IMG/VR virus record: IMGVR_UViG_3300030116_000231
Coordinates: 1-53,199 of that record
Direction: 5' to 3' (one strand)
DNA from: a virus
Taxonomy: Duplodnaviria; Caudoviricetes
Length of the DNA: 53,199 nucleotides
Made by a program: the position numbers and the translations under genes. The notes below the pieces were generated by a model. That model saw only the letters and a program-made list of their open reading frames with translations, was not told the DNA's origin and searched no databases. Positions 165 through 41,378 of this stretch are shown in pieces; the first letter of the stretch is position 1, and every line of letters begins with the position of its first letter.

Positions 165-520
165 ACTATGGTCGTATGCCACGAGGGGATATTAGAGTTC
201 GCCTTGATGTGTTCCGTAAGTCTGCGGCTGAGCCGTTTGATAAGGGTACGATGATGATTGACCGCACCCACTTCCGCAAGTGGTTGTCTGTTCGAGGAGC
301 TGACTACAAGTCATTCAAACAGGAACTTGCTGTGGAGAACGCGATTGCCACGCCGAAGTCAGAGAAGGCTTCACTTGGTAAGGACACGCCAATCAAACTG
401 GCGCAGTCCTATGTTATAGGCTTTAACTTAACTCACCCAAGATTCCAGAGCTTGCTAGAGAACGCTGATGTAACTGCTGATGACTTAGCTTACGGACAGT
501 TACAAATTGTTACAGACTAG
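1..520 (+). CDS. C-terminal part of the primase-helicase (continues from 50697 across the circular junction)
   Basis: In frame with the 50697 ORF through the terminal overlap; ends at TAG 518-520. Confidence 0.9.
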   Translation, partial: YRQATEWVLAQIGAIRRTVQENQVDSFDLIAEYMADSADAQVTVMHTAGQKPQPDYGRMPRGDIRVRLDVFRKSAAEPFDKGTMMIDRTHFRKWLSVRGADYKSFKQELAVENAIATPKSEKASLGKDTPIKLAQSYVIGFNLTHPRFQSLLENADVTADDLAYGQLQIVTD

Positions 521-6500: not shown

Positions 6501-7995
6501 CGCCTAGGTTCTGATCTGGAAATAACTCTCCTTGCGTAGGCTCAACAGGTTGCGTTGGTGCAGTACCAAGGTCTGTATCTTCTGGGAACAACTCCTGCTG
6601 TGTTGAACCTTCTGGCATCCCAGGCTCAGCAGGGCTTGCATCTGTATCTTCAGGCGGCGTACCTTGTAGTAGGTCAGCCTCAGTAGTTTTCTTGAGGTTA
6701 GCAACACCACCGATAGGCGCACCGATAGCAAAGCCTGCGGCAAAAGAGTTAATCAATCTAGCTAGAGTTTCATCGCCCTCGTACTTCCGTCCTGTATAGG
6801 CGCTAGTGGCACCCATAACGATGGCTTCTTGACCTGCTTCTGTGACACCCTCTAGTGTACCACCTACTCCTGCACCTGTAGCGCCTCTGCGTAGCCTGCT
6901 ACCTTTTGACCCTCTGCCTATATTACCAAAGATCTTAGCGCCAAGCACAAACTCAGGGATCGTATCTAGTAGAGCATACGGAACACCTGCGCTAAGCGCA
7001 GTCATCTTTGCGTTAAAGTCGCTAGGATCAACCCCGCTTTCGAGAAGCTCTGAGTAGACATCAGATGATGCAATACCAAAGTTGTTTGCGTAGCCTAACG
7101 TAACTGCTCCCGCAATGCCTGATGCACGCTTCAGAACCTTACCTTGTTCGGTCTTCATAAAGGCTTTAGCTGCTGCTTTGCCTTTACCTTTTTCGATTGC
7201 GTACTGCTCAGCTGCTTCCTTAACAGCCTTTTTAAACGCAGCCTTACCTGTAAGTCCTGCAATCGTACCGCCTACAGAACCTAATCCTGGCCCTGCTGTA
7301 GCAGAACCTGCGACAAAACCGATGGCACCTGCAGCAATAGTCTCAAGGAGCATTGGGCCTTGTGTACCAAGTACGCCTACGAACCACTCGACTGGGCCTA
7401 AGTCTGCGTCACCCATACCGATGTCGGTAAACTCACCTGCAAAGGGTCTGTTCTTACGGATGTCTTCTTCCGCACGCTCCATGACCCCAAGGCCATACTC
7501 ATCAGCACCTACCAGCACAGCACCTGCACCGAATAGAGAGCGTAGCTGAGCCATGCCTGTATCGAAGTTTTCAGCGAAACGGCGTTTTAGTGTGGGATCA
7601 GTAATAGATTTAATATATTTACCGTACTCGTCTGGCGTTACTTGTTGCCAGCTTCCAGCAGGTGCAGCTTGCCTTGGCTTGTCTAGAAACTCACGAGATT
7701 TTACAGCAGCGTCAGCGTCATCAAGATCAAACAGTGACCCGTTTACAAACACCTTGTTTTGCTGTGGGTCAAATAGAACATTAGGGCCAGTAGGAGCAGG
7801 GCGTTTTACCTCAGGCAGTGTAAACTGAGACATACCTTTATTGTACTCAGCATCAATCTCTGTGCCGATTACCTGTCGTTTACCTGTAAGGTTGCCTACA
7901 CCTATATCTGGAGATGGATCATAGGGGTTTCCTAGCGGATCTAAATCCATTGCTCCTAGTAGAGGACTACCAAATGAAAGGCCCGCTTTCGCCAT
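517..7995 (-). CDS. Giant internal virion/ejection protein (2492 aa) with a zincin-like HExxGH motif
   Basis: Last gene of the late arm; VAHETMGHFG motif; YVPFTRRG resembles PLxRFG; Gly/Ala-rich hydrophobic N-terminal region. Confidence 0.8.
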   Translation of the reverse strand: MAKAGLSFGSPLLGAMDLDPLGNPYDPSPDIGVGNLTGKRQVIGTEIDAEYNKGMSQFTLPEVKRPAPTGPNVLFDPQQNKVFVNGSLFDLDDADAAVKSREFLDKPRQAAPAGSWQQVTPDEYGKYIKSITDPTLKRRFAENFDTGMAQLRSLFGAGAVLVGADEYGLGVMERAEEDIRKNRPFAGEFTDIGMGDADLGPVEWFVGVLGTQGPMLLETIAAGAIGFVAGSATAGPGLGSVGGTIAGLTGKAAFKKAVKEAAEQYAIEKGKGKAAAKAFMKTEQGKVLKRASGIAGAVTLGYANNFGIASSDVYSELLESGVDPSDFNAKMTALSAGVPYALLDTIPEFVLGAKIFGNIGRGSKGSRLRRGATGAGVGGTLEGVTEAGQEAIVMGATSAYTGRKYEGDETLARLINSFAAGFAIGAPIGGVANLKKTTEADLLQGTPPEDTDASPAEPGMPEGSTQQELFPEDTDLGTAPTQPVEPTQGELFPDQNLGVGNVDQLELFDQPVIPSRQPGFQMELPFGQQRLMAQPQPVQQEMELVAPVGAQGDLFSQQTTPPMPEPAPVEPAPVQNVVESIQRTAAAQPQLQPNLLQQRMQEAAQRKIEADAEAERQAQLQAENEAIRAEQLRVENQRIERNNRELLNSLEQERAAEEIAAYEAEQQGVTQPNLPPVAAPVQNLPTVPVPVAPPRQLDLFRGQVKIPKPSKAEQKAINKANRLRRKQEREAEKAAEEAARPMTPAEARAAGQGILFTQRGEPSMAALKAAGTTAPATTPELVQTTPDEEALAAQQQEINKLKQQVDELREAQDNVVQEQGPAEVDVGEPAGVGTGTGQPDTQEQTTTRKGRSKERLREAQERKKTSAVEEAEAATREADSQQGTQEDSVQGGTQLDPEKNAEEIAILEVIEEFENDQGKTLDDIDTDANYLMDIAYWAPAPTGTNAAALDEKAARMRAKAFVDKAFTSPADFTDGQLKMLDKRFVKYALTFDSLSSTKPWYEYATRRGLVDKIAKDVKITGKPHEAFMGERQAPMTNAAPAVEENSDTMNAATKAADEKTGRFFLMEDGTAITDPLPKLRVQAIANKALSKLKTKPKLKVFNDQQDLLRTDPALFNRIAERRPNFADAPAAGVSLGDEIVIFSDRIKTEKQAKFVVAHETMGHFGMGAFMDRKTLEKNLENVYLSDSSLRVMVNRRVEMGMERIEAIEEELANRAADLDSSVIKQIWYAVKDALNKLGFDFTDDLARYMLRQSRRNLLQGGSGLVSMQELGRNLQSLQRDNTLVRYSLVEDTADAASRAISSHAFTKSSGNYGGMRAAKKMLTDLKDIENIRDVGVFFGKLAENVQSLDNMATRSDGLQQVFNIFQARANRARRFLSNYEGMTAFSNSAFSFTDENGNKQGGPTEEELLQAGQLLAYGALNKQDAVTDTDIRDVGDLVTMQNGVVGINRDNFEAAVAAGELTREDFTNGLRVTLGDQEQEVFSEDVWTPDFPITDRVWNIYNEQRKAVNQSALDVARSTIEGAVAQRDATINQFKKSYGMSDQDTMVLRRVMEQYVNLYQKDSRQEGGSFQYKSESVEDAKTFLREINRALYVKDKVQDWKQGREDTAKFQGQDFQEIIAGLDSLSDKNYTQGQANRITSAIGNLYLLDVQAANAQFNAKRTIMTSYVPFTRRGNQQIRLAAFDDNGEVVPLGDVWKTVLPYYQAGSRKDAREIVDNLNAEFGDRQFTIEDANGKERAITFRAVTETTRKGSVLGQQFSLDDFVNTLARLDVNINPQERERIVEALTAQTQRARRSLQRAGVRGWDQDVVRSTAEYLETQGHIAGQTFYRHRLNNIMLDDSLWRGDSKLLKDLYAETQRTDLAPEDMRRAQNNYDRYAYMYQYMAADGMPQAINRVTGKSMKNLGRGEDYRGTALGLQQWYADASNINDSTEDLLSGETGSRLKMWTVVAQLGGSVATAGINLVSMMTHSIPFLGTYNEARGFGGGFGLSNSALEMQLAARNMLDSNLADATYINRVVSDQSLLDKHGLKRDEALFLANATSEGVLQAAQANALVGTARGGINSNKLQGAVKLWMGMFSYTEQLNRRATALAAFRLHKKRAVAGSPEYIELEVLGDSRNMEQDARFTELENQINSEATEFARTAVNTSQGEYGMFNRPEMARGNVGQYLFIYKQFSIITIQMMKGMSPKGRLYFLGMLFAMSGLKGLPFADDLADLIDTLLQFFGIKKASVEEELIKLFDGLAPGSAKYMMRGGLDQIAAGTFSTRLGFGDLIPLTGALRAGADSSRELQNFFGPVYSGLEGAFVTAGNFSKYAAGVVGLRDQTTSFTGAFRESPVAAMRGIIDAYTYYDTGAVTNSQGKVIDPSSDWGQIAFRAMGFYPSIATRENDIVRLGKYKAEYIKYLRADYTAAYVKAYVEKDRARMREVINMVRDWNVIHRGTAFEFKDFEKRAKRSAKAAAMPTGQRYLKTSPTAIRSDLEELMRIYGLNDEKF

Positions 7996-8003
7996 TATTT
8001 ACC

Positions 8004-10517
8004 TCACTCCGATGCGGCTTTATAATCTTCCGCTGTTGCTCCCCCTGTGTTTATTGCCATAGCCTCCGTTGGGCTAAGAGGGGTTAGTTTAGGTCTTACT
8101 ACTACTTCGCCGTTTACAGTTTTTTGTTCTGCCGCTGGCTCCAGTAAGAAGTACTGACCTTGATCATAGATTAGAGCGTATCCATCTCCTAGAGCTTTGA
8201 ACTCGCCTTTGCGTGCTTTTAACTCTTCTAGGTATGCTTTACCTGCGTTCTCAAGGTTTTTGAGTTTGAGGTCACCCAGTAGTTTATCACGTTGTTTGGC
8301 CAGTTCTACCTCTAGGTCTACGTTTTTCTCGAACAGATATGTCTGTCTTTCTAGCTGTGTTTTTGTTTTAGACTCACGGTACTGCTGGTCGTATGTGGAG
8401 CGTAGTTTATCTACCAGTTCGTTATAGTTATAAGTAGCCTGCCGCTGCCCATTAACCATAACGTCAAACTTACCATCAGAACGTGGAACAATCTGAATAT
8501 CCAAGCCTGAGAAGGCTGACAGGACAGCCCCTGCGCGAGCAGTTGATCCGTAGGATAGATCTTGTAGTGCCTGTGCGCCTTGTACAAGCAGTAGTTTGTT
8601 GTCGAACTCAGCCATCTTCTCAGTAGCTGATCGTTTTAGACCTGTAACACCTGCAAACTCTTTGCCGTCAGAGGTAATGCCGCCTTCTAAAAGAAGGAAG
8701 TTTTGCTCGCGTAGTGCTTCTGCCTGCGCTCTAAGCTCATTATACCTAGTTAAACCACCTGGCTGGATAGCAGCAATCTCTGCTAGACGCTCTAGTTCTC
8801 TAGCTTTCTGATTGTTTCTTTCGATCCTACGGTTAATAAGATTGATACGTTCGTTGACAGTATCTACAACACGCTTGCGCTGATCCAAAAGGTTTTGGAT
8901 TTCTATACCGATCTTAGGTGGGTCTTGAAGAAACTTAACGATTGTATCGTCGTCAGGCTCTACACCATCGTTTGCAAGGGATGGCGTTTCTTCCCCATCT
9001 GAGCCTTTTACCACGACCTCAGGTAGCACAACAGTGTCAGTAGACGTATCAGTCTCAGTAGACGTATCAGTCTCAGTAGACGTATCAGTAGTTGTTTCAG
9101 TAGTAGTGGTCTGTGTGCTTGTCGGAGTTACGCCAAGCTGCGCCCCGTAAGTATTATAGATGTGGTTATACAGCGTGATATACGCACGGCTGTAGTCAGA
9201 GTTGGTAATGTTGCCATCGTGGGCTTTTAGCGGACGACCTTTTTCTAATACTCTATTGGCGTTAGCTTGATAGCCAGCGCCCCAGAGAGACTTATCAAGG
9301 CCGATAGCTTTGTTGTATACAAGTTGAGCAAGGCCACCCATCAAATCACTAGCAGGAGACTGTGGGCCTTGGCCTCTGAAGTTTGGCTTACGCATGTTAG
9401 AGAACGAAGCAATAGCTAGTTCCATACGAGCTTGGTCAACGGTTCCGTCTGGACGTTTGAAAGCGTTTGCAATTACTTCACGATTAGCAGGGTCGGCAAA
9501 AAAGTTTTTTAGCCTTTCAAACTGGGCTGGCATAACCTGCATACCGCCCTTAGCACCTGCTATGCTGGTATCTTTACTCCTGCCAAAATCAGATTCAATA
9601 CCATAAATTGCAAGTGCAGCAATAGGATCAATGCCCAGCTGATTAGCTAGGTCTATAAGCTCTCTAGTCTTAGGGTTCTTTAGAGAACTTGGTAGCGTCT
9701 CAATTCGACCAGAGATAAGTTTGTCAGTCTGAGCAGTACTGTTTTTTACAACACGAGAAGTAGTGCGTTTATCTCTTTGGTTTATATACTCTAAAGCAAA
9801 TACCAGTGGGTCTCGTTTAGCTATCGCAATATAGTCTGGGTTGTTATAGAAAAACTGAAATGCTTCTTCGCTGTTGTACCAAGAGTGTGCATCACCCTGC
9901 TCTTTAGTTACATTCTGCGTGCCTTGTCCGCCTTTGCGACGAATACCTGTGCCTTTATAGATGTCTGCAATGGCTTTTTTCAGATCATTTTGACGCTTTC
10001 TTTCGAGCCTAGCTGTAGAAGATTTACCACTGGCGTCTGGTACAACAGGGCCAGGCATAGGTAAAAGGTCTGCACCTGTGGCAAACGGATCTGGGATAGT
10101 AACAGTCTGAGTCTGCTGCAGAACATCGTCAAACACAGTAGTAGTGTCAGTAGTCTGATCTGTAGTCGTGTCAGTAGTCTGATCTGTAGTCGTGTCAGTA
10201 GTCGTGTCAGTGGTTGTATCTGTAGTTGTAGTTTGGTCTACAGGTTTGTCTGTGACTACTGGTGGCGGCTTAGGAATATTCTTCAGGCCAGGTTGGTTTA
10301 GGTCATCAAACTTAAACGCGTTGTCAGGCGTAAACTCATCAGCTTTCTCACCATCAGGGCGAAAAATATCTTTGCTTCTGTTCTTACGCTCATTCTCTTC
10401 TATAGTATTTTGGCGGCGCAGTTTCTTCAGCTTATCAGCTGCCTCAACCGCAGATGCATACTCGGTAGCAGACCTTAGCCCAAGGGCATTACCTATAAAA
10501 TTTCCAAGTAGCGCCAT
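8004..10517 (-). CDS. Internal virion protein with a lytic transglycosylase (SLT-like) domain
   Basis: AIYGIESDFG...GAKGGMQVMP catalytic motifs; Thr/Asp-rich linkers; coiled-coil C-terminus. Confidence 0.8.
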   Translation of the reverse strand: MALLGNFIGNALGLRSATEYASAVEAADKLKKLRRQNTIEENERKNRSKDIFRPDGEKADEFTPDNAFKFDDLNQPGLKNIPKPPPVVTDKPVDQTTTTDTTTDTTTDTTTDQTTDTTTDQTTDTTTVFDDVLQQTQTVTIPDPFATGADLLPMPGPVVPDASGKSSTARLERKRQNDLKKAIADIYKGTGIRRKGGQGTQNVTKEQGDAHSWYNSEEAFQFFYNNPDYIAIAKRDPLVFALEYINQRDKRTTSRVVKNSTAQTDKLISGRIETLPSSLKNPKTRELIDLANQLGIDPIAALAIYGIESDFGRSKDTSIAGAKGGMQVMPAQFERLKNFFADPANREVIANAFKRPDGTVDQARMELAIASFSNMRKPNFRGQGPQSPASDLMGGLAQLVYNKAIGLDKSLWGAGYQANANRVLEKGRPLKAHDGNITNSDYSRAYITLYNHIYNTYGAQLGVTPTSTQTTTTETTTDTSTETDTSTETDTSTDTVVLPEVVVKGSDGEETPSLANDGVEPDDDTIVKFLQDPPKIGIEIQNLLDQRKRVVDTVNERINLINRRIERNNQKARELERLAEIAAIQPGGLTRYNELRAQAEALREQNFLLLEGGITSDGKEFAGVTGLKRSATEKMAEFDNKLLLVQGAQALQDLSYGSTARAGAVLSAFSGLDIQIVPRSDGKFDVMVNGQRQATYNYNELVDKLRSTYDQQYRESKTKTQLERQTYLFEKNVDLEVELAKQRDKLLGDLKLKNLENAGKAYLEELKARKGEFKALGDGYALIYDQGQYFLLEPAAEQKTVNGEVVVRPKLTPLSPTEAMAINTGGATAEDYKAASE
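9037..9089. repeat. 18-bp tandem repeat, about 3 copies, encoding TDTSTE
   Basis: tcagtagacgtatcagtc at 9037 and 9055, partial at 9073. Confidence 0.9.
10141..10230. repeat. 12/24-bp tandem repeat encoding (DTTT/DQTT)n
   Basis: gtgtcagtagtctgatctgtagtc at 10144 and 10168, followed by degenerate 12-mers. Confidence 0.85.
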
Positions 10518-18876: not shown

Positions 18877-19033
18877 TCATAGCCTCCAGTACTGCTTGGG
18901 TTTGATCTTCTACTTTTACCTCCGGTTCATCTGGTAACTCAGGTTCAACAACTAATACACACCCTTCCTCAACAGGATCTGCTGTCCTAGCAAACGAACC
19001 GTTAGGAAACATGTATAAAGGAACTCGTTTCAT
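18854..19033 (-). CDS. 59-aa acidic hypothetical protein (MKRVPLYMFPNGSF...), not in the ORF track
   Basis: ATGA overlap with the upstream stop; fills the gap. Confidence 0.6.
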   Translation of the reverse strand: MKRVPLYMFPNGSFARTADPVEEGCVLVVEPELPDEPEVKVEDQTQAVLEAMSAENDSS

Positions 19034-19311
19034 GTATTACCGTTCTGATCTATCATATTTTTGAAAGCCGTTTTTACTTCGTCTGTCCACGCTGCATTAC
19101 ACTGCGCTTGAACATCTTCAGGTTCCCCCGATATATCTGTATCTTGCCAAGTATTGTTAGGCTTAATGCAGGGAGTTAAGGTGTATCTTTGGTAAGTGCG
19201 AGACAGTTCTTGTCCGTCTTCAGTCACAGTAACAACTTGGCGCACATTCACACACTTACCGACACCTACAACTTCTATACGATCAACCTCAACTGTTTTC
19301 TCTAACGCCAT
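19030..19311 (-). CDS. Tail-fibre-associated small protein / chaperone
   Basis: GGAGG RBS; follows the fibre gene. Confidence 0.6.
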   Translation of the reverse strand: MALEKTVEVDRIEVVGVGKCVNVRQVVTVTEDGQELSRTYQRYTLTPCIKPNNTWQDTDISGEPEDVQAQCNAAWTDEVKTAFKNMIDQNGNT

Positions 19312-32733: not shown

Positions 32734-32927
32734 TAAGAATACTCCTCTTCATCCCGATCTTTGTCTTTCTTTACAGTGTCAGGATCGTTCTTGTTGGTAT
32801 ATACATAACCTCCGCTTCCATATTTGCGAACTTTACGTTCTGCCATACCGCTCGTATCCATCTTTGGATTGTCGGAGTATACAGTGTAAGGTTTACTGCA
32901 ACCGCATGGCATTCCGTTCTTATGCAT
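32733..32927 (-). CDS. 64-aa hypothetical protein with YGSGGYV
   Basis: TAATG-coupled to the portal. Confidence 0.65.
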   Translation of the reverse strand: MHKNGMPCGCSKPYTVYSDNPKMDTSGMAERKVRKYGSGGYVYTNKNDPDTVKKDKDRDEEEYS

Positions 32928-32929
32928 AC

Positions 32930-33220
32930 TTAGACCTTCCGCTTTGGTACTAAACCGCCGTGTTTATACTTTGCAGCCAAGTCAGGATTCATACTTTGTT
33001 GAACCTTTTCAGGTAGTTTAGAGAAACCTTTATACTTGTCTGGTACAACTCCGCCGTCTTTGTATTTTGGAATAATACCGCCCATACCCATCTTTTTACC
33101 CTTGGGTGCTTCTTTCCTAGGGTCAAAGCCTTTTGATAGAAAAAACTGCATTAGACTCATACTATCAGAGGCTGGGCCATCAAAATACTCTGCGCGTAAT
33201 TCTTTTTCTCTATCGGTCAT
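32930..33220 (-). CDS. 96-aa basic protein with three [YM]xxGG motifs
   Basis: MGMGGII, YKDGGVV, YKHGGLV; first gene after the late promoter. Confidence 0.7.
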   Translation of the reverse strand: MTDREKELRAEYFDGPASDSMSLMQFFLSKGFDPRKEAPKGKKMGMGGIIPKYKDGGVVPDKYKGFSKLPEKVQQSMNPDLAAKYKHGGLVPKRKV

Positions 33221-33263
33221 ATGGCAACTCGCTTTCTTTACACACCTATAGTGTACACTTTAA

Positions 33264-33292
33264 GTTATACATGGCAACAAGTTTCAACGCAA
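33264..33292 (-). promoter_or_regulatory. Sigma70-type promoter for the head operon
   Basis: TTGCGT-17 nt-TATAAC on the minus strand, just after the terL terminator. Confidence 0.65.
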
Positions 33293-33294
33293 GT

Positions 33295-33335
33295 AAAAGA
33301 AATAACCCCCTGCAGGGGCAATCTGCAGAGGGTTA
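33295..33335 (-). terminator. Intrinsic terminator after terL
   Basis: TAACCCTCTGCAG-ATTGCCC-CTGCAGGGGGTTA-TTTCTTTT. Confidence 0.75.
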
Positions 33336-33377
33336 GTGAGGTAACTATGAAGGTGTCGAGATGACATGTAAACTCTA
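33295..33377 (-). ncRNA. Candidate terL 3'UTR-derived antisense RNA against early-gene translation starts
   Basis: Contains UUCAUAGUUACCUC (33351-33338), the perfect complement of 39419-39432, just 5' of a terminator hairpin. Confidence 0.35.
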
Positions 33378-34763
33378 TCAAGTCCAACCTGCTGCTGCAA
33401 CTCTTTTGACATCTCGTCTTACAGGTATCACTGAGCCTTCACCTGCAGTAGATACATGCAACATGAAGTATTGTAAAGCTTCAGCTATGTGTGAGTGTTT
33501 ATTTTTATCTATTGTGCCATTTTTGTGGTGAAACCTGTAGCCACCCATCATAGCAGCTTTTAACTGCGAGCATTTAGGATCTACAAGAAACGCGCTGTCA
33601 CCGTCAACATGTCGCATCAAGAAGTCATCCACCGCAGACAAACGTGCTGACACGTTGTTTGTCTTGGCTGATATAACTCTAAAACCTTCAGCCTTGATGA
33701 TGTCAACTGCCGAGCGTTCGTCTGTTTGCGCCCGCTGTACGCCAGCTGGATCAGTCACGATCAGTATGGGCGCTCCGCCAAAGCGTTCATAGATAATAGG
33801 TTTGAGAATGGTGCGGACGAATCTCTGTATTCCCATGTCGAAGGACACTGCCTCATCGAGAACCAAGACTCGCCCGCGAGGGTCTTGTTGCCCTATAACT
33901 GCGGCTGGTGTCAAGCCCAAATCCATGCCAACAACGACAGGGCGCACACCATTAAGAATAGGCTGCAAAGTTTCATCGGCCATGTGATAGTCTGGCCTGA
34001 AATACTTGTAGACCGGTTGTCCTGCTGAGCTGAGTCCGTATTCTCCGTCAATGAATACTCTGATATATTCTTCGCTACGTCCTTGGGTGTCATAATATCC
34101 ATCTGGCAAATTCTCCACATTTTCGGCATGGATGCTTCGCCCAGACGGCTGTTTGAATACATCCCACCCGTTATCATTGATACTGACCCCGTCTTTAGGG
34201 TCTAGCTTTTCCATCTGATAATACCACCAAGTATCCATAGTCGGGGGGTTAGTGTCACCCCACATACCATGCCATGTCGGCCCGCCATCCTTCTTCGAAG
34301 GAAAACGTCCGATACGTTTAGACATAGCGTCTACGATCTCGGCGTTAATATCTCTGCACTCGTTAAACCATGCAAACGTAAGCTCTAGTGAGTTCAAGTT
34401 TGCTACATCGTCTGCGTCATCGAGCGCACGAAACATAATCTCGCACTCAACATCACCGACTTTGAAAAAATATGTCTTGGTTGTACGCATGAACTGACCA
34501 CACGGGCCAGGTGGAAACCAATCAAGAAACGTTTTAATTGTAGTATCCGTCAGCTGACGTACAGTTTCACGCACGACAGCACACCGCGATTTGCGTATGC
34601 CTTGCTCGTTTGGCTCCTGTGAACTAGCCCGACGAACAATTTCAAAACAACTAGCGACAGACTTACCAGACCCAACTGGCCCCATAAGCACCCGCATCTT
34701 AGCATCCGACTGCATAAACTTCGCCGCAGTCAAAGACGGTGTAAAGTCAATATCGAGAGGCAC
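33378..34763 (-). CDS. terL: Terminase large subunit
   Basis: Walker A GPVGSGKS, Walker B AWFNEC, GDTNPP, nuclease GMDLG; likely GTG start at 34763 after GGAGG. Confidence 0.93.
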   Translation of the reverse strand: MPLDIDFTPSLTAAKFMQSDAKMRVLMGPVGSGKSVASCFEIVRRASSQEPNEQGIRKSRCAVVRETVRQLTDTTIKTFLDWFPPGPCGQFMRTTKTYFFKVGDVECEIMFRALDDADDVANLNSLELTFAWFNECRDINAEIVDAMSKRIGRFPSKKDGGPTWHGMWGDTNPPTMDTWWYYQMEKLDPKDGVSINDNGWDVFKQPSGRSIHAENVENLPDGYYDTQGRSEEYIRVFIDGEYGLSSAGQPVYKYFRPDYHMADETLQPILNGVRPVVVGMDLGLTPAAVIGQQDPRGRVLVLDEAVSFDMGIQRFVRTILKPIIYERFGGAPILIVTDPAGVQRAQTDERSAVDIIKAEGFRVISAKTNNVSARLSAVDDFLMRHVDGDSAFLVDPKCSQLKAAMMGGYRFHHKNGTIDKNKHSHIAEALQYFMLHVSTAGEGSVIPVRRDVKRVAAAGWT

Positions 34764-34947
34764 TCTCGTCTTCCTCCAATCTATCCATTGCTTTTGCAAG
34801 CTCGTCTGCCGTCATGTCAAGTATAGACTTTTGCTCCCACGGCATAGACGGTAGTGTTATATCCTTCTTCTTTTCTTCTACTGACTGGCGTTTATACGCT
34901 AGCCACTCTCGTTCCTGTGCTGTCCAACGCTTACTCATCCTGGCCAC
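34747..34947 (-). CDS. 66-aa hypothetical protein
   Basis: Overlap-coupled between the Zn-ribbon gene and terL. Confidence 0.6.
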   Translation of the reverse strand: MARMSKRWTAQEREWLAYKRQSVEEKKKDITLPSMPWEQKSILDMTADELAKAMDRLEEDESASRY

Positions 34948-35219
34948 CCCATCTTATTAGACAAGTCTGTATACTCATCCAACCAAGTTATATCCCCACA
35001 GGTCTTACACCAGTTGTGTTCTATAGTACTCATGCCACAGTGCGGACATTTCTGCACCTCATCTATGGCAAGCAGACGATCAGGATCATCGAGGAGTACT
35101 ATTGCGTAAGGATTAGACAATGTCTTTTTTCTCCTAATCGTCTGCTTGTATCGCACGTTCAGTTGCGTGAGAACTCTCGCGCACCGCTCGCACTCATCCA
35201 GCGTCGAGAAGGTGGCCAT
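34935..35219 (-). CDS. Zn-ribbon protein (CPHC...CKTC)
   Basis: Likely start MATFST at 35219, overlapping the terS end. Confidence 0.6.
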   Translation of the reverse strand: MATFSTLDECERCARVLTQLNVRYKQTIRRKKTLSNPYAIVLLDDPDRLLAIDEVQKCPHCGMSTIEHNWCKTCGDITWLDEYTDLSNKMGWPG

Positions 35220-35700
35220 CTTCTGCCCCTTGTACCTCTCCGTGAATCTCGTCAATAGGTTCGTGATCAATAACACTCGCTGTGTGGTCTTGACCTCCGA
35301 GGTTAATTGTAATTTTAACTCCGCCACCTGCTGCCTCCGTGTTGACCTCGTTCTTTGGTTCTAGGCCACCCCACTTCACTGTTGATTTAATCAGGTCTGC
35401 TTTTACAGCCGCAGAAACATCTGGGCTGTGGATTAAAGTCCAACTTGTTGTCAGGAGTTCTTCTGCCTGTGCACGGGCCTTGAGTTTGAATGTCATACCT
35501 TTTTCACGAACTTCTTCGCGGTACGACTCGACCTTCTTCAAAAACACAGGGTCTTTGTTAAATATCAAAAGATTACTGGCGTCTACGTTGTGCCTGTCTT
35601 TAACTTCATCCAAAGTCTCGCCACTGCCCTCGAGCATCAAAGCCATATCGAAAGCTAGGCGGTCTGACCATTTAGTATGTTTTAACGGTAGTGTGTCCAT
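35194..35700 (-). CDS. terS: Terminase small subunit (putative)
   Basis: 168 aa, first late-arm gene; helical core and GGGVKITINLG C-terminal strand. Confidence 0.7.
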   Translation of the reverse strand: MDTLPLKHTKWSDRLAFDMALMLEGSGETLDEVKDRHNVDASNLLIFNKDPVFLKKVESYREEVREKGMTFKLKARAQAEELLTTSWTLIHSPDVSAAVKADLIKSTVKWGGLEPKNEVNTEAAGGGVKITINLGGQDHTASVIDHEPIDEIHGEVQGAEDGHLLDAG

Positions 35701-35706
35701 AATGAG

Positions 35707-35736
35707 AATGTAGTTCGTAAGTTACGGGGCTGTCAA
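35707..35736 (-). promoter_or_regulatory. Sigma70-type promoter giving a probably leaderless terS mRNA
   Basis: TTGACA-18 nt-TACATT-6 nt-ATG; no SD sequence; CGTAA-C-TTACG palindrome in the spacer. Confidence 0.55.
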
Positions 35737-35956
35737 GAAACTTTCAAAACTTTACATCTTCGTTTTTTGGGGTCTTGTTATGTGAGGTTTACTTATATGG
35801 GGGTGGGGGGTGCAACGCAAATCCATGTGTACCCCCCTCAAGGTGTTCGTATGCGCTCGCGCAAAGTGTCAGCATAGCAAGGCAAAAGCCCTAGTAAATC
35901 ATGCTAACTTGACATTTATGTATAGTTATGGCTGTATGTAGATGTCGCTGATGAAC

Positions 35957-36011
35957 GGCGGCAGGCGGAAGCGGGGCTTCCCACACCCGCCACGCTATTT
36001 GACATTGTGGG
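35957..36011 (+). promoter_or_regulatory. rrn-like antitermination leader (GC hairpin, boxA-like GCTATTTGACA, TGTGGG)
   Basis: GGCGG...CCGCC stem, then GCTATTTGACATTGTGGG upstream of the first early gene; TTGACA at 35909 upstream has only a weak -10. Confidence 0.45.
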
Positions 36012-36027
36012 TATATAGGAGAGTGTT

Positions 36028-36390
36028 ATGAATACACGTTCTTTTGAGGGTCGCTTCAACGTTCGTCTGAACAAAGAAGCAGGTGTTATCAGCCTAGCCA
36101 AGGCAGTCGACGGCAAATATGGTGCCGAACACGCCGAGGATGTTGCTAAACTGGTGGTCGAAGCCGCCAAAAAGCACAAGGCAAGCCTCGACCGCTGGAG
36201 CTTTTACATCAAGGGCGTCAGCCAAAATCTTGGGGAATCCAAGACAATGGCGGCAACCGAGATCGCAAAAGCGATGAAGGCGGGACACAAGCCAGTCATC
36301 AAAGCTGGCAAGTGGGGCAAGCCAAGGTTGGATCTGGTCAACCCAGATGCACCGTCCACAAAGACTAACGACAACATCGTTACTCTTTAA
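36028..36390 (+). CDS. Early protein, paralog 1 (AGKWGKP...DNIVTL)
   Basis: AGGAG RBS; about 37% identical by eye to 37186-37551. Confidence 0.85.
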   Translation: MNTRSFEGRFNVRLNKEAGVISLAKAVDGKYGAEHAEDVAKLVVEAAKKHKASLDRWSFYIKGVSQNLGESKTMAATEIAKAMKAGHKPVIKAGKWGKPRLDLVNPDAPSTKTNDNIVTL

Positions 36391-36398
36391 CTCAACCA

Positions 36399-36420
36399 GC
36401 TGGGAGCTTCGGCTCCCAGC
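36399..36420 (+). other. Perfect 9-bp UUCG hairpin without a U-tract (stabiliser/processing element)
   Basis: GCTGGGAGC-TTCG-GCTCCCAGC. Confidence 0.7.
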
Positions 36421-36438
36421 AATCAACCGGAGGCAACT

Positions 36439-36603
36439 ATGAAAGTTGAAAAACTAAGACGCTACTGTGTAGATTGGGTTGAGATGGGCACAATATACTT
36501 CAGGTACTACAAAACTGAAGGAGCCGCTAAGAACTACGCTCTGCACCTGATCCACGACATTGGAATACCAAAACATCTGGTCAATGTCATACAGGTCAAA
36601 TAA
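36439..36603 (+). CDS. 54-aa early protein (MKVEKLRRYCVDWVEMG...), not in the ORF track
   Basis: GGAGG RBS; followed by a terminator. Confidence 0.75.
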   Translation: MKVEKLRRYCVDWVEMGTIYFRYYKTEGAAKNYALHLIHDIGIPKHLVNVIQVK

Positions 36604-36610
36604 ACTAACT

Positions 36611-36641
36611 GAGGGGAGTCGCAAGGCTCCTCTCTTTTTTT
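36611..36641 (+). terminator. Intrinsic terminator
   Basis: GAGGGGAGTC-GCAA-GGCTCCTCTC-TTTTTTT. Confidence 0.88.
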
Positions 36642-36714
36642 GTGTCAAGTTTCTATTATTTTGTGTGTGTACCCCCATTGCTCGGGGGGTTTTGGCTCGC
36701 TCTAATGTAATGTT

Positions 36715-37070
36715 TTAGTACTATCTATACTATCTAACACTAAGTTGACACGATATTGGGGGTTTTAGATACCTAAACTATACAATCGCATTACAGTAAG
36801 GCCATAGAAATCAGTATATTACGAGCCATATGTATAGTATTACTATCTAAACTATCTAAATTATATAGTTTTTTTACATATACCCTTTCCTAAACTTAAA
36901 TATCCAGTGATAATACTATTTGCGCGTAGCGCCACATTATTCCGAAATTACTAGATAGTTTAGATACCTTACACTTAACCCCCTGATTATCCTCATCTTC
37001 TCAGTATCTGTTCTCAATAGATACTTTCAATCTGCGCCCCCCTCTCTAGTCTGACTCTATAGATACCTAT
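36715..37070. repeat. Putative replication origin with 9 STATCTA/TAGATAS iterons
   Basis: Non-coding and AT-rich; copies at 36721, 36730, 36843, 36852 (+) and 36766, 36952, 36961, 37018, 37060 (-). Confidence 0.6.
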
Positions 37071-37088
37071 CAAATCTAAAGGTGGGGC

Positions 37089-37122
37089 AAACTTGACAAC
37101 TCGGCTCGGTTGTGTCAAGTTT
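37089..37122. promoter_or_regulatory. Symmetric bidirectional promoter/operator
   Basis: AAACTTGACA-N14-TGTCAAGTTT; reads TTGACA-17-CAAGTT with TGn on both strands. Confidence 0.6.
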
Positions 37123-37185
37123 TGGGTCGGCGTTGTGCCACCCCTCTTAGAGGGTCTTTAAACTTAACACTAACTGGAGGTCACT

Positions 37186-37551
37186 ATGACTAAGACTTTT
37201 GAAGGTAACTTTAATCTACAATTCAACAAGACTACTGAGCTTCTTGAACTCAAGCCTCATCCTGAGGGTAAGTACACTGCTGAGACAGCAGGTGAGTGTC
37301 TAGCTTCTGCTATGGCATTCTGTGATGCTAACCCTAATGCAGGCTTTAATCGTTGGGACTTTTATATCCCCAATGTCAACCAGACTATTGAGCGTGATAG
37401 TAAAGTTCTTCATGCTGACCATGTATCTGATGCTGTAAAGCGTGGTGATACACCTGTCGTTAGAGCAGGTAAATGGGGCAAGCCTAAGATGACTATTGCT
37501 GGCCCTGTAACACAGGTCAAGAAGGCTGACGATAACATTGTCACTCTTTAA
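37186..37551 (+). CDS. Early protein, paralog 2 (AGKWGKP...DNIVTL)
   Basis: GGAGGT RBS; paralog of 36028-36390. Confidence 0.85.
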   Translation: MTKTFEGNFNLQFNKTTELLELKPHPEGKYTAETAGECLASAMAFCDANPNAGFNRWDFYIPNVNQTIERDSKVLHADHVSDAVKRGDTPVVRAGKWGKPKMTIAGPVTQVKKADDNIVTL

Positions 37552-37560
37552 TCCACCCCT

Positions 37561-37599
37561 AAGGGAGCGTCATTCAATGGCGTTCCCTTTTCGTGTTTC
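37561..37599 (+). terminator. Probable intrinsic terminator
   Basis: AAGGGAGCGTCAT...ATGGCGTTCCCTT followed by TTCGTGTTTC. Confidence 0.65.
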
Positions 37600-37615
37600 T
37601 ATCAATGAGGTTGCT

Positions 37616-37774
37616 ATGCAAGAAGTTTATTTATCGCAGACTAAGTCAGGCATTCTAGGTTACTTTACAGGTAGCTTTCTAGTGTGGAACTTGACTCAGG
37701 AAGAATATGACATGCCATCGGATTGGCATATTGAGAACTGTCGTCGCAAGGGGTTTCTCTATGTCGTCCGTTGA
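37616..37774 (+). CDS. 52-aa hypothetical protein
   Basis: GAGGT RBS before ATG 37616. Confidence 0.6.
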   Translation: MQEVYLSQTKSGILGYFTGSFLVWNLTQEEYDMPSDWHIENCRRKGFLYVVR

Positions 37775-37973
37775 GTGTGTTCGTTGTAGTGGCGAGGTTC
37801 ATCCTCGTCGCTCAGCCCTCGGCTATGACACTTGTCTAGTCTGTGGGGATAAGATTGCACGAGAGCGAGTCTATACTGTCGCTCCGTTGCACAAGTCTAA
37901 CTATATGCTCTTCACTAATCCTGAGGATTTGAAGGGTGTCAATAACAAGGGAGGTATGTTCGATGAAAGGTGA
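37761..37973 (+). CDS. DksA/TraR-type C4 zinc-finger protein
   Basis: CVRC-x5-PRR-x7-CLVC. Confidence 0.65.
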   Translation: MSSVECVRCSGEVHPRRSALGYDTCLVCGDKIARERVYTVAPLHKSNYMLFTNPEDLKGVNNKGGMFDER

Positions 37974-38064
37974 CATGTTCTGGTGGGTTTTACTGTCCGC
38001 ACTAGCGGCAGGTATTCTCGCCTTTATCGACGGTTACTTCGAGCTTGGTCTCTATGCTTTCTAG
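37963..38064 (+). CDS. 33-aa membrane peptide (MKGDMFWWVLLSALAAGILAFIDG...), not in the ORF track
   Basis: GGAGGT upstream; fills the gap; single TM. Confidence 0.55.
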   Translation: MKGDMFWWVLLSALAAGILAFIDGYFELGLYAF

Positions 38065-38236
38065 GAGTGTAGAGATTATCGGAGGGCTACTGCTCTGCGT
38101 AGCGGTAGGTTTTCTTATCGCCTTCATAGCCATCAATCTAATTCTTGGCTGTGAAACATGGGATGAGTCGTTGTGGACTGAGACGAACTCATGCTTAACA
38201 CTAACGCAAATCATGGAGGTAATAACACATGACTAA
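38054..38236 (+). CDS. Small membrane protein
   Basis: One TM helix followed by GCETW...C. Confidence 0.6.
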   Translation: MLSRSVEIIGGLLLCVAVGFLIAFIAINLILGCETWDESLWTETNSCLTLTQIMEVITHD

Positions 38237-38417
38237 GTCCGCACTGAAACTCTTTGTACTTCGGTACATCAAGGGTGGAGCAATCGTTAATGGAGATGAT
38301 GGCAAGCCGTTATTCTTCAGTAACAAAGGTGCTGCTAAAGCACAACGAACTAAGGACATGAAAGTGTCCTATGGCCCTGACCATAATAAGTTCCAAGCAT
38401 ATAAGGAGGTACTATAA
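38229..38417 (+). CDS. 62-aa basic hypothetical protein
   Basis: GGAGGT RBS. Confidence 0.65.
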   Translation: MTKSALKLFVLRYIKGGAIVNGDDGKPLFFSNKGAAKAQRTKDMKVSYGPDHNKFQAYKEVL

Positions 38418-39413
38418 ATGCGAGCCGAACTACTAAAACAAACTATCAAGGATTTATTTCCTATGAAACGTCCGCTGTCTATCGTCGGTGCTCCTGGCGG
38501 TGGTAAGACAACCATTGTGAGAACAGCTGCTCAGGAGATGGGCATTGGCTACATCGAGAAGCACATGCCAACGATGCTAGTCGAGGACTTCGGTATCCCT
38601 GACGTTGCCACTGATGGTGAGTCATTCGGATACAAGCTACCTGATTGGTATCCTGCTGTTGGTCGTGATGACATCCCTGAAGAGGGTATACTCTGCTTCG
38701 ATGATCGTAACCAAGCAGGTGATGACTTGCAGAAAGTGCTTGCCAATATTCAGCAAGCTAGAACACTGCATGGTGTCAAACTCAAGGCAGGTTGGACTGT
38801 CGTCTCTACTGGCAACAGGAAAGAGGACAGAGCAGGTGCTCAGAAGATACTTACTCACCTCGCTAACCGCGAGACTGTCATCGAACTAGACACACACCTT
38901 GACGACTCTCGTCGATGGATGATTGACAATGAGGTCAAGCCAGAGGTGGTGTCATTCATTGGCTTTCGTCCTGCACTACTGCATGACTTCGATGCTCAGC
39001 GTGAACAGAATCCTACACCACGCTCTTGGGTCGAGGGTGTCAGTGCAATACTTGGCACTGTCAGTCCTGAGGCTGAGTTCGAATGTTTCAAGGGTGCTGT
39101 AGGTGAAGGTGCAGCGGCAGAGTTTGTTGGCTTTATACGGATCTATCGTAAGCTACCTAACCCTGACAACATCATCATGAATCCTAAGACTGCTGATGTT
39201 CCGACTGACCCTGCTACTTGCTACGCATTGTGTGGCTCTCTTGCAGAACGAGCAACTGAGAACAACTTCGAACGTGTTTGTACTTATGCGGAACGTATGG
39301 AGCCAGAGTTCTCTGTACTAACCGTATCATATGCGGCTCGTAAGAAGCCTGAGCTAGCCTCGACGCAAGCGTTTACTAACTGGGCTGTTAACCATCAAGA
39401 TGTGCTATTCTAG
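38418..39413 (+). CDS. MoxR/AAA_5-like AAA+ ATPase
   Basis: GAPGGGKT, LCFDD, TGNR..DRAG, LANR, TPRSW motifs. Confidence 0.85.
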   Translation: MRAELLKQTIKDLFPMKRPLSIVGAPGGGKTTIVRTAAQEMGIGYIEKHMPTMLVEDFGIPDVATDGESFGYKLPDWYPAVGRDDIPEEGILCFDDRNQAGDDLQKVLANIQQARTLHGVKLKAGWTVVSTGNRKEDRAGAQKILTHLANRETVIELDTHLDDSRRWMIDNEVKPEVVSFIGFRPALLHDFDAQREQNPTPRSWVEGVSAILGTVSPEAEFECFKGAVGEGAAAEFVGFIRIYRKLPNPDNIIMNPKTADVPTDPATCYALCGSLAERATENNFERVCTYAERMEPEFSVLTVSYAARKKPELASTQAFTNWAVNHQDVLF

Positions 39414-39427
39414 AAACGGAGGTAACT

Positions 39428-40288
39428 ATGAAACTATCAGATAAAGCACTACTCGTTCGATTGGGTATATCCCAATGGACTGCTCGTAAGTTTGACAAGA
39501 AGGCTACCGAACAGGTAGCCTCAGCCAATAATGCGGCTGTACAATCAGGCAGATACAATAAGTCTCTGCTTCCGATGAATGACTTTCTGACTAGTGTACA
39601 CCAGAAGTCTACGCTCATCCGCAAGAAGTACTATACAAACACTCTACCGTGGGGCATTGACGGTACGCAAATCTTGCCTAGTGCAAACTATCTGTCCTTT
39701 ATGACTGACTTCCGCAAGGAGAAGTATGAATGGCAGATGGTAGTTAACTCGTTCTTGTCAGAGTATATGCGGCTCAAGACCCATGCTCGTGTATCTCTCA
39801 ACACGTTGTACAACGAGGCAGACTATCCATCGCAAGATGAAGTTGCATCTAAGTTCAATATGGATTTGCAAGTTATGCCAGTACCCGATGGTGATTTCAG
39901 AGTTGACATTGCAGAGGAGGAGCTTGCTCGTATCACTGCTGACGTTGAGCGTAGGGTTATCGACGCATCGCAGAACGCCATGAAGGAAGCATGGACTAGA
40001 CTGCATGACCGAGTGAAGCACATGGCTGAGAAGCTAGATGACCCCAAAGCTGTATTCCGTGACACTCTTGTCGAGAATACTAGGGAGATATGTTCTGTCC
40101 TTACTAGGCTGAACTTCACCGATGACCCCAACCTTGAGGCTATGCGTCAAGAGGTTGAGCAATCACTAACCAAGCATCATCCTGATGCATTACGCAATGA
40201 CCCTGACCTACGTCGTGATAAAGCCGCAGAAGCTAAGGCTATCATGGCTAAGATGGGCGCATTTATGGGAGCTAACAATGGAGATTAG
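39428..40288 (+). CDS. DUF3150-like helical protein
   Basis: TLPW...ADYP...LNFTDDPNLE motifs; lies between the AAA and vWA genes. Confidence 0.6.
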   Translation: MKLSDKALLVRLGISQWTARKFDKKATEQVASANNAAVQSGRYNKSLLPMNDFLTSVHQKSTLIRKKYYTNTLPWGIDGTQILPSANYLSFMTDFRKEKYEWQMVVNSFLSEYMRLKTHARVSLNTLYNEADYPSQDEVASKFNMDLQVMPVPDGDFRVDIAEEELARITADVERRVIDASQNAMKEAWTRLHDRVKHMAEKLDDPKAVFRDTLVENTREICSVLTRLNFTDDPNLEAMRQEVEQSLTKHHPDALRNDPDLRRDKAAEAKAIMAKMGAFMGANNGD

Positions 40289-41378
40289 TAGAAGACTGAG
40301 CAAGTGTAAGACTGCTCTTGTGCTTGAGCATCCGTTCATTGGCAATGTTGCTATGAACATGCCGTTCAAGCTGACTGAGGATGTACCGACTGCCGCCACT
40401 AACGGCAAGCAAGTCGTGTTTAATCCTAACTTTTGTGATGAGTTGAATGATGAGGAGCTAAAGTTCCTCATCGCTCATGAGTGTATGCATCCTATGATGG
40501 AGCATAACTTCCGCAGACAGAGTCGTGAACCACGCAAGTGGAATCAAGCCGCAGACTATGTCATCAACAAGCTGTTGTCAGATGAGGGCATCGGTAAGAT
40601 GCCTGACTGTGGCCTGTTGAGTGACGACATCTATGATGCAGGTGGCGGTACTAGTGATGGTATCTACAAGATTCTACCAGACACACCAGAGGGTACAGAT
40701 GACCCACTTGATGACTGTCAAGATGGCGAGGGTTCACCTGCTGAACTAGAACAGCAAGCGGCAGAATGGAAAGTCAAGGTTGCTCAAGCGGCTCAAGCCG
40801 CCAAGATGATGGGCAAGATGAGTGCAGGACTAGAGCGTCTGGTCGATGAGATACTGCAACCCAAAGTAAACTGGGCTGAAGTGATGACTAACTTTCTCGT
40901 CAAGAAGCGTACCAATGACCGCACCTTTTCAAGACCTAATCGTAGGTTCATACAGCAAGGATTGTATCTGCCTAGTATAACTGGCGAAGCACTAGGTGAG
41001 GTAGCCTTCTGTGTCGATTGCTCTGGCTCTATTGGGCAAGAGGAACTCAACCAGTATGCGGCAGAGATAATCAAAGTCCATGAGGATCTGCATCCTGAGA
41101 AGATACATGTTCTCTACTTTGACTCTGAGGTATCACACTATGACATGTATGAGCAGAACGAATCACCTGTAATCCAACCACATGGAGGTGGTGGTACTGC
41201 GTTCAGTCCTTGCTTTCGATACATGCAAGAGCATGACATCAACCCTGTTGCTTGTGTGTTCCTGACTGACCTGTACTGCGACGACTTTGGTGATACACCA
41301 GACTATCCTGTACTGTGGATTTCAACCACTGATGAAGACCAAGTGCCGTTTGGCGAAGTAGTAAAGATGGAGGTATAA
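40278..41378 (+). CDS. HExxH metallopeptidase plus vWA (DUF2201-like)
   Basis: TAATNG, AHECMH, WNQAADYVIN; MIDAS DCSGS, GGGGT, LTDLY. Confidence 0.85.
   Translation: MEISRRLSKCKTALVLEHPFIGNVAMNMPFKLTEDVPTAATNGKQVVFNPNFCDELNDEELKFLIAHECMHPMMEHNFRRQSREPRKWNQAADYVINKLLSDEGIGKMPDCGLLSDDIYDAGGGTSDGIYKILPDTPEGTDDPLDDCQDGEGSPAELEQQAAEWKVKVAQAAQAAKMMGKMSAGLERLVDEILQPKVNWAEVMTNFLVKKRTNDRTFSRPNRRFIQQGLYLPSITGEALGEVAFCVDCSGSIGQEELNQYAAEIIKVHEDLHPEKIHVLYFDSEVSHYDMYEQNESPVIQPHGGGGTAFSPCFRYMQEHDINPVACVFLTDLYCDDFGDTPDYPVLWISTTDEDQVPFGEVVKMEV

Follow-up and report, generated by a model that had tools for sequence, protein, structure and literature searches.

The window analysed here is the whole 53,199-bp stretch of the IMG/VR record IMGVR_UViG_3300030116_000231, a single contig of an uncultured marine tailed phage (Caudoviricetes), which is organized in two divergent arms. 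Genes for virion structure and packaging lie on the minus arm (1-35,700), among them those for the major head protein, portal/adaptor, internal virion protein and tail fibre and the large terminase gene terL. Small genes of no known function are found on the plus arm (36,028 to the end), together with those for an AAA-type ATPase, DNA polymerase, exonuclease, helicase and primase. Our subject is the short stretch behind terL, where 42 nt separate the stop codon TGA (33380-33378, minus strand) from an intrinsic terminator hairpin, and its complementarity to the translation start of a DUF3150-like gene on the other arm, which we call gene X. A reading of the letters of this DNA (the sequence-only reading) had proposed that the 3' untranslated region (UTR) of a late terL transcript is antisense to the ribosome-binding sites (RBSs) and start codons of a set of early genes and could act in trans as an early/late switch. 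The features at the locus are the following.

33378..34799, minus strand: terL, large terminase (phrog_2, E=2.4e-25; start codon uncertain)
33395..33400, minus strand: -35-like hexamer TTGCAG in the terL codons Val-Ala, agreeing with TTGACA at 3/6 positions and lying 17 nt upstream of the -10 (seen in the sequence; weak alone)
33372..33380, minus strand: predicted extended -10 element TGATAGAGT (TGnTAnnnT), its TG supplied by the terL stop TGA (suggested by conservation)
33365, minus strand: predicted transcription start, a G 7 nt after the -10 and the first base of an invariant GTCA (from promoter geometry)
33354..33366, minus strand: small 5' hairpin TGTC-ATCTC-GACA (from minimum free energy (MFE) folds)
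33336..33353, minus strand: single-stranded seed CCUUCAUAGUUACCUCAC, 18 nt, with its core at 33351-33338 (unpaired in the MFE fold)
33303..33335, minus strand: intrinsic terminator hairpin with a 13-bp stem and a 7-nt loop (fold, terminator call, covariation)
33295..33302, minus strand: U-tract TTTCTTTT (seen in the sequence; hairpin and tract together called terminator-like)
39428..40288, plus strand: gene X, 286 aa, DUF3150-like
39419..39442, plus strand: main candidate target, namely gene X's Shine-Dalgarno (SD) sequence, its start codon and its opening five codons (14/14 exact, 22/25 extended; rank 1 of 74; lineage-specific match)

The element thus lies 3' of a stop codon and ends at the terminator of that same gene, which is the layout of a terminator-sharing small RNA (sRNA). 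The terminator hairpin folds in its context at -29.3 kcal/mol (z=-3.09), and 1/200 shuffled sequences folds equally well. In 19 sequences of the window's own clade, clade A, 12 of its pairs could be followed; six are changed on both sides and 94.7% of the cells remain paired, a level of covariation that 0/500 shuffles reach. The T-run of the hairpin is found on the minus strand only. The 18 nt in front of it are unpaired in the MFE fold, with a mean unpaired probability of 0.73, and the core is complementary to the gene X SD, spacer, AUG and two more bases. The proposal of a single-stranded anti-SD seed directly before a real terminator is therefore borne out by fold, covariation and unpaired seed. 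The motif CCTTCATAGTTACC is retained in 7/19 clade-A sequences, and other anti-start sequences take its place elsewhere. For the small 5' hairpin, the other clade-A folds shown have comparable predicted hairpins of 3-6 bp in the corresponding position, while its 5' arm is invariant and hence provides no covariation support. A scan of 32800-40500 with Rfam covariance models at E<=1 gave no match on the element; the sole match in that region was a sub-threshold PrrB/RsmZ at 40126-40259.

Within the window, the complement of the seed core, GAGGTAACTATGAA, occurs exactly twice on the plus strand, at the element itself (33338-33351) and at the start of gene X (39419-39432). It is found with one mismatch at 36430 and with two at 37177, and a fifth match at 19610 on the minus strand, which the sequence-only reading had not listed, lacks GAGG. 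These five matches with at most two mismatches compare with 0.38 expected, and 0/100 shuffles reach five. Looser matches are present upstream of the genes at 37616 (GAGGTTGCTATG) and 48992 (GAGGTAACACTATGAA). Hence terL stop, hairpin, the 14/14 match and the partners at 37616 and 48992 are as the sequence-only reading had described them, as is the 13/14 match at the start of the 54-aa gene; the 12/13 it had counted at 37177 is in fact 12/14. At gene X the similarity extends to 22/25 aligned positions (33338-33362 versus 39419-39442), i.e., to codon 5. When the 18-nt seed alone was paired to 74 start regions, gene X was its best partner at -22.1 kcal/mol, a value that 4/300 shuffled seeds equal, followed by the starts at 36439, the late gene 25043, 48992 and 37186. 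Two of the early genes qualify as secondary candidate targets:

36430..36443, plus strand: start of the 54-aa gene (13/14; -17.4 kcal/mol, seed rank 2)
37177..37190, plus strand: start of the 121-aa gene (12/14; p=0.005 against windows of its own locus; seed rank 5)

Several early genes carry a hairpin a few to 30 nt 5' of their ribosome site on the plus strand (36408-36429, 37140-37160, 37561-37589). Viewed from the plus strand, the terL terminator with its RBS-like motif looks like these hairpin-RBS arrangements.

A pyrimidine-rich 3' UTR containing CCUC and CAU might, however, match the stereotyped starts of phage genes by chance and have no specific function at all. Start regions of the GGAGGTA type are common on both strands of this genome, a few shuffled seeds do as well as the real one, and a 13-nt complement of the seed lies inside a coding region (3853-3865), away from any start, in the giant 2492-aa gene (517-7995, minus strand). 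A 10-nt complement covers the SD region of the same gene (7999-8008, minus strand), and the two seed complements at this gene may represent chance or a second target. Taken by itself, the single genome makes only a moderately strong case that the matching exceeds chance. Strong support for this comes from relatives rather than from one genome.

No close isolate exists: a megablast of 32900-34900 against isolated phages gave no match, and the best terL of a phage isolate is 44% identical to that of the window. The comparative work was therefore done entirely on IMG/VR contigs, where more than 600 stretches encode a terL relative; the best 80 of these, at 81-99% identity, were used. The loci of relatives, both these and those fetched later, are numbered here with an L. 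In a layout survey of these 80 loci plus the window, 80 sequences include the terL stop, L018 being cut short by its contig end, and 78/80 of them show, by our criteria, a strong hairpin with a T-run 22-112 nt after it, L049 and L052 being those that do not. The stretch before the terminator is pyrimidine-rich, and in most clades the opposite strand reads like a ribosome site with an ATG.

The arrangement shows several variants among the relatives. A clade comprising L069, L071 and L072 has one to three tandem copies of a 10-nt unit, CACCACTTGA, directly after the terL stop, and a far longer UTR of 92-112 nt. In L025-L038, L050, L058 and relatives the anti-RBS motif occurs twice, one copy in the loop and stem of a 5' hairpin and the other single-stranded just 5' of the terminator. 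The terminator loop itself is pyrimidine-rich and anti-SD-like (e.g., TTTCTCCTTTC) in L020, L027, L051, L068 and others.

A first comparison used 23 group representatives and measured the longest exact run between the UTR complement and the start regions (-22 to +12). The mean longest run was 8.9 with own early genes, 7.5 with foreign early genes and 6.35 with own late genes, permutation of UTRs against loci gave p=5e-5, and the most frequent best partner was gene X. We then turned to loci anchored on gene X. Among 173 sequences, 59 contained both the terL end and the gene X start, and 57 were usable; they reduce to 41 distinct pairs of UTR and start region and to 22 clusters by UTR similarity, all from uncultured relatives. 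Against its own gene X start (-30 to +15), the own UTR reached a Smith-Waterman score of 17.1, as compared to 13.15 for foreign UTRs, and the longest common run was 7.77 versus 6.04 (permutation p=2e-5 for each). The own UTR ranked best of 22 in 7/22 clusters. When the UTR complement was compared to all windows of the same length in its own locus, on both strands, the match to gene X was at p<0.01 in 9/22 clusters and at p<0.05 in 11/22 (Fisher combined 1e-14). Reversed sequences, in which composition is kept, abolished the signal (12.9 versus 12.1), and the same permutation applied to other starts gave p=0.10 for the ATPase, 0.028 for the DUF2201 gene, 0.71 for the portal gene, 0.23 for a 62-aa gene and 0.11 for a 225-aa gene. 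The sequence-only reading had named conservation and co-variation of seed and target starts in relatives as its own test, and for gene X the element withstands it.

The individual clades illustrate how this matching is maintained, and several of them match with different sequences at both sites. The window and L101 are of the GGTAACTATGAA type, the window match being a 14-mer. L119 has a different spacer before the gene X ATG, and its UTR carries the complement of that version (an 11-mer, 18/19 with one gap), while L108 has a third version of the spacer, again matched (a 10-mer, 19/22). In L132, the sister of L119, a serine codon of gene X is AGT rather than TCT and the UTR differs in step, the pairing consisting of two 7-mers that flank a small internal loop. 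In the clade of L063, L080 and L077, gene X begins Met-Ser-Lys and the UTR complement matches as a 10-mer (14/15 with a 1-nt bulge); here the complement lies in the loop of a hairpin, and in L077 the stem of this hairpin has another sequence with the pairing kept. In the distant clade of L155, L156 and L168, the match covers SD and spacer (11/12, 13/14 and 16/17, respectively), and in L155 and L156 the matched segment lies in a hairpin loop. By clade, the matched segment shifts along the gene X ribosome site, from about -24 to -10 in L156 to -4 to +15 in L119. Finally, L003 and L083 have lost the stretch with the predicted promoter and the 5' hairpin by deletion and keep the seed, the terminator and the 14/14 match.

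These results bear directly on the possibility that the similarity is without function. Half of the clades show nothing, as a chance origin would allow. However, the permutation of own against foreign UTRs, the flat negative and reversed controls and the independent clades with different matched sequences all speak against it, and of the explanations considered here we give this one the least credence.

The comparison also bears on the choice between one target and many. Among the 22 representatives, 27/305 plus-arm start regions match at p<0.01 and 51/305 at p<0.05, as compared to 4/122 and 7/122 on the minus arm. The notion that many early genes are silenced at once, in an early/late switch, by a 3' fragment set free from the late packaging transcript can thus point to the difference between the arms (P=0.0013 at p<0.05), to the UTR complement being closer to own early than to own late starts (the run of 8.9 versus 6.35 given above) and, in the window, to the plus-arm genes (39428, 36439, 48992 and 37186) that make up four of the seed's five best partners. 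However, gene X matches at p<0.01 in 9/22 representatives, compared to 18/283 for the other early genes (P=2e-5), and without it early genes do not differ from late ones (18/283 versus 4/122, Fisher P=0.15). At the conserved early genes nearby, lineage-specific matching is slight or absent, and nothing marks terL as late, as described below. Because the early genes other than gene X do not differ from late genes, we conclude that the relation is mainly with gene X and not with early genes generally. The antisense idea of the sequence-only reading thus has support for a single main target, whereas its extension to a set of early genes and a general early shut-off is not supported, and we consider such a switch distinctly improbable.

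The complementarity can also be read from the other strand. On the plus strand, GAGG-N5-ATG could simply be the RBS of the mini-ORF (open reading frame) MKVSR, or of a 56-aa ORF at 33361-33531 antisense to terL, in which case start regions would merely resemble each other. The SD and ATG are good, the stop of the mini-ORF overlaps the next ATG (ATGA), this second ATG at 33361, with AAGG upstream, is conserved in clade A, and the UTR complement scores like a true start region. Opposite-strand ORFs that start in the terL 3' stretch were therefore listed across 32 sequence groups, each represented by a single member. The ORF behind the ATG of the motif has 5 aa in the window, 25 in L002, 48 in L005, 38 in L007 and 29 in L010, hence lengths from 5 to 48 aa, and these ORFs use three different frames relative to terL; the one behind the second ATG, antisense to the terL C-terminus, ranges from 3 to 59 aa, and the ATG is deleted in L003 and L083. 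Since lengths and frames vary and the second ATG has been lost in these two relatives, no protein is conserved here, and no small plus-strand protein or leader peptide conserved in frame and length was found in the 32 groups. Furthermore, the clade of L063 and L080 retains the complementarity with no SD on the plus strand, the T-run is restricted to the minus strand, a promoter scan of 33221-33347 called no plus-strand site 5' of the motif (nor was one seen in one relative that was read), and the matching follows gene X and the lineage rather than starts in general. We thus regard it as very unlikely that the motif is just the RBS of MKVSR, which the sequence-only reading had itself named as an outcome that would count against its proposal. 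The relatives with two motif copies had also brought up the idea of CsrA-type GGA loops on the plus strand, which was dropped because no plus-strand transcription signal was seen.

A further alternative places the function, or its relic, at the level of DNA: the two sites could be bound by one phage DNA-binding protein, or the terL-side copy could be a relic duplicate of the gene X 5' end that recombination keeps alike. A duplication would leave similarity that runs past the RBS into the first five codons, as is observed (22/25), and a protein site would likewise co-vary by lineage. On the other hand, a matched segment that slides along the start region is more easily reconciled with occlusion of a ribosome site than with a fixed operator, and the terL-side copy lies between stop and terminator wherever it is matched and tends to sit in RNA hairpin loops or linkers. 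Across clades in which the gene X proteins are only 55-80% identical, a relic free of selection would not have remained matched. In addition, the motif is not palindromic, and GGTAACTA has one further copy only, inside the polymerase gene. We consider a DNA-level origin unlikely, while leaving it some weight.

How a separate RNA might be made from this site is suggested by the terL stop codon itself. An extended -10 element has the consensus TGnTAnnnT, and in an alignment of the 19 clade-A sequences (A2) the first, second and sixth bases after the stop (T1, A2, T6) are invariant while the three bases between them vary; G13, T14, C15 and A16 are the sole other invariant positions between stop and seed. 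Of 115 loci, which represent 78 unique contexts, 55 contexts read TGA followed by TAnnnT, one reads TAG followed by TAnnnT and 22 have neither; as a control, TAnnnT follows TGA in 72/976 other ORFs of at least 100 aa. The hexamers agree with TATAAT at three to six of six positions, two being TATAAT itself, and relatives carrying the -10 have TTGCNN at the same 17-nt spacing within the Val-Ala codons. In three other clades, the position 7 nt past the motif falls just 5' of the first predicted hairpin, as read by eye. This suggests that the element has its own promoter, from which an RNA of 71 nt, i.e., about 70, would run from 33365 to about 33295. Another candidate promoter, within the UTR (TTGTCA ... 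TAGTTA; called by the tool as TTTACA-17-CATAGT), was rejected, as its spacing is not conserved across relatives in an alignment read by eye.

The designation of terL as late, on which the proposed switch depended, finds no footing here. A near-consensus sigma-70-like site (TTGACA-18-TACATT, 35736-35707), adjacent to the early region, marks the beginning of the terL operon, and the element seemingly has its own promoter. Directly past the terminator, at 33264-33292 on the minus strand, lies another sigma-70-like site, TTGCGT-17 nt-TATAAC, which by eye is conserved in many relatives (CTTGCGT ... TGTATAAAT). It lies upstream of the 96-aa and portal genes, which suggests that the structural genes have a host-type promoter to themselves.

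The start region of gene X lies 6,050 bp from the element, on the opposite strand, and the gene is flanked by those for an AAA-type ATPase (38418-39413) and a DUF2201 VWA/metallopeptidase (40278-41378). Its own protein had no Pfam match at E<=0.001; four of 15 orthologs match DUF3150 weakly (best E=0.0018), and a cyanophage protein carrying the annotation DUF3150 is 31.6% identical to it.

A relative at about 91% identity is present, as contigs only, in four metatranscriptome runs of a single seawater sample. Two of the runs have contigs of 14-32 kb, which show no single transcript, and the other two have zero or near-zero cover at the terL region, which proves nothing with respect to an RNA of about 70 nt. 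Such contigs say nothing about starts, ends or strand, and they weigh neither for nor against the proposed RNA. In two runs (X3 and X4), a contig of this relative starts at 35962, preceded by sequencing-adapter letters, and ends at about 36603, just 5' of a predicted plus-strand terminator at 36611-36634 (window 35962-36634); it covers a 120-aa gene and the 54-aa gene. At 39095, upstream of gene X, a further contig begins, likewise with adapter letters. The ends at 35962, about 36603 and 39095 are weak hints of transcript ends, of which contigs can offer no proof.

Five close relatives (L173-L177) are contigs of metagenome-assembled genomes labelled Micrococcales, Burkholderiaceae, actinobacterium, Saccharibacteria and Gammaproteobacteria. 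One of them is a 56-kb contig, the size of a whole phage, and the discordant labels are probably due to mis-binning of phage contigs. Because the five labels disagree, no host was inferred.

With the evidence laid out, we lean slightly towards a short trans-acting antisense RNA against gene X as the explanation of the element. In such a mechanism, the minus strand from 33365 to 33295 would encode a base-pairing RNA of about 70 nt consisting of the 5' hairpin, the 18-nt single-stranded seed and the intrinsic terminator. The mRNA of the terL operon would contain this sequence too, at its 3' end, and the sequence is probably also transcribed from its own extended -10 promoter overlapping the terL stop. 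The seed would pair with the SD, start codon and first codons of the gene X mRNA, made from the opposite strand 6 kb away, and block the loading of ribosomes; the duplex, with 14 perfect pairs within 22/25, could also be cut by a double-strand ribonuclease. The outcome would be post-transcriptional down-regulation of gene X and possibly, in this phage, of one or two other plus-strand genes. Complementarity, terminator, an accessible seed in predicted folds and conserved, lineage-specific matching are observed here; the promoter, the RNA itself and the direction and timing of its effect are inferred. Since L003 and L083 have lost the predicted promoter yet keep the seed, the terminator and the 14/14 match, the seed may act within the terL mRNA too; repression of gene X nevertheless appears to us the likelier role than an effect on the terL mRNA.

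A number of observations weigh against this interpretation, and they concern the pairing, the comparison and the RNA itself. With free duplex folding of the whole 42-nt UTR, the late gene at 19030-19311 came first and gene X fifth of 74; the difference between plus-arm and minus-arm duplexes was weak (Mann-Whitney p=0.03), and dinucleotide-shuffle tests in 23 groups were mixed, with seven at p<=0.05 and six at p>0.3. Whole-UTR folding permits long gapped duplexes in which generic SD pairing prevails, and because its results were mixed, exact-run, local-alignment and seed-only measures were adopted. As for the comparison, the 22 clusters are related to each other, such that the p-values are indicative rather than exact, and gene calls and start choices are heuristic. 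The representatives of 11/22 clades have no significant match to gene X (L111, L115, L143, L145, L152, L158, L163, L068, L095, L104 and L078), and L111, L143 and L152 rank lowest, with p of about 0.8; L111 instead matches four other early genes. In L084, the gene X spacer has changed while the UTR has not (11/13), and its UTR fits the start region of L091, perfectly over 13 nt, better than its own. The -35 hexamer is poor (3/6) and lies within coding sequence. The RNA itself is a prediction from sequence comparison.

A fuller proposition can be formulated, namely that in a whole family of marine podovirus-like phages, as yet uncultured, a riboregulator of about 70 nt is transcribed independently, from a promoter set on the terL stop codon, and that its seed has long co-evolved with the RBS and first codons of gene X. 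This would be a trans-acting, self-targeting sRNA, its target known by co-variation alone, in a phage in which no lysogeny genes were found. We advance it tentatively, as something quite possible that falls somewhat short of probable.

Among known systems, the closest parallel is with the sRNAs derived from bacterial 3' UTRs. These are of two types, those transcribed from their own promoter inside the upstream gene (type I, e.g., MicL and DapZ) and those cut from the mRNA (type II, e.g., CpxQ, SroC and GlnZ). The element resembles them in sharing the terminator of the upstream gene, in the single-stranded seed 5' of it and in pairing to the RBS of a distant mRNA. A promoter where the upstream gene ends, as predicted, would liken it to type I, and the promoterless form of L003 and L083 to type II or to action as a whole mRNA. 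Unlike the bacterial examples, it is a phage element directed at a gene of the same phage, its promoter would be built on a stop codon, and it is a candidate known from sequence alone.

Phages themselves have classical antisense RNAs, such as sar of P22, OOP of lambda, c4 of P1 and P7 and CI of P4, and of these sar and c4 act at or beside an RBS. Another lambda RNA, aQ, is described as cis-acting in the accessible part of a recent review (PMC12197685). The element shares with all of these that a short phage RNA would pair to a phage mRNA. However, sar, OOP and aQ are cis-encoded and overlap their targets, whereas here only the terL 3' end lies opposite; because the target is 6 kb away, the element is not a cis-antisense RNA of the sar/OOP type. 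c4 and CI work within their own operon in the immunity of temperate phages, in contrast to a phage in which the scan of 31 ORFs revealed no lysogeny gene.

Shut-down of phage mRNAs at the SD or start region is also known from phage T4, where the endonuclease RegB and the translational repressor RegA are phage proteins that carry it out. These are proteins acting on many early mRNAs, whereas here a candidate RNA would act mainly on one gene. Synthetic antisense oligomers directed against phage translation initiation regions have been described, as far as the accessible portion of the source goes (PMC12571901), and they share the targeting of start regions; they are man-made, while the element would be a natural regulator.

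More recently, ONT-cappable-seq of virulent Pseudomonas phages has revealed the non-coding RNAs (ncRNAs) ncRNA1 and ncRNA2 of PAK_P3, which are processed 3' UTRs that accumulate late, as well as candidate ncRNAs that stem from 5' UTRs in phiKZ and 201phi2-1, according to the accessible parts of two reports (PMC10914365, PMC11512511). Like these, the element is short, UTR-derived, found in phages that appear lytic and conserved among relatives. The Pseudomonas RNAs were detected by experiment, with no target named in those parts, whereas here the target emerges from co-variation and the RNA is a prediction. In the accessible part of the 2025 review of phage sRNAs, those with a named mechanism come from temperate phages or prophages and act mostly on host genes or in cis, and neither terminase nor early genes are mentioned (PMC12197685). 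Our literature search found no sRNA located after terL or aimed at a DUF3150-like gene, while supplementary tables, such as that of the 38 function-less sRNAs in the review, could hold such cases.

The usual order is thus reversed, in that a specific target has been pinned by co-variation across many uncultured relatives, and with this candidate target, a direct reporter test with compensatory mutations is possible without knowing the host. If the proposal is true, phages of a widespread environmental group regulate genes of their own through a trans-acting RNA, a stop codon can at the same time form part of the promoter of an sRNA, and the trio of ATPase, DUF3150-like and DUF2201 genes would be flagged as one whose dosage the phage must control with care. 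It would also mean that comparative metagenomics alone can link phage sRNAs to their targets.

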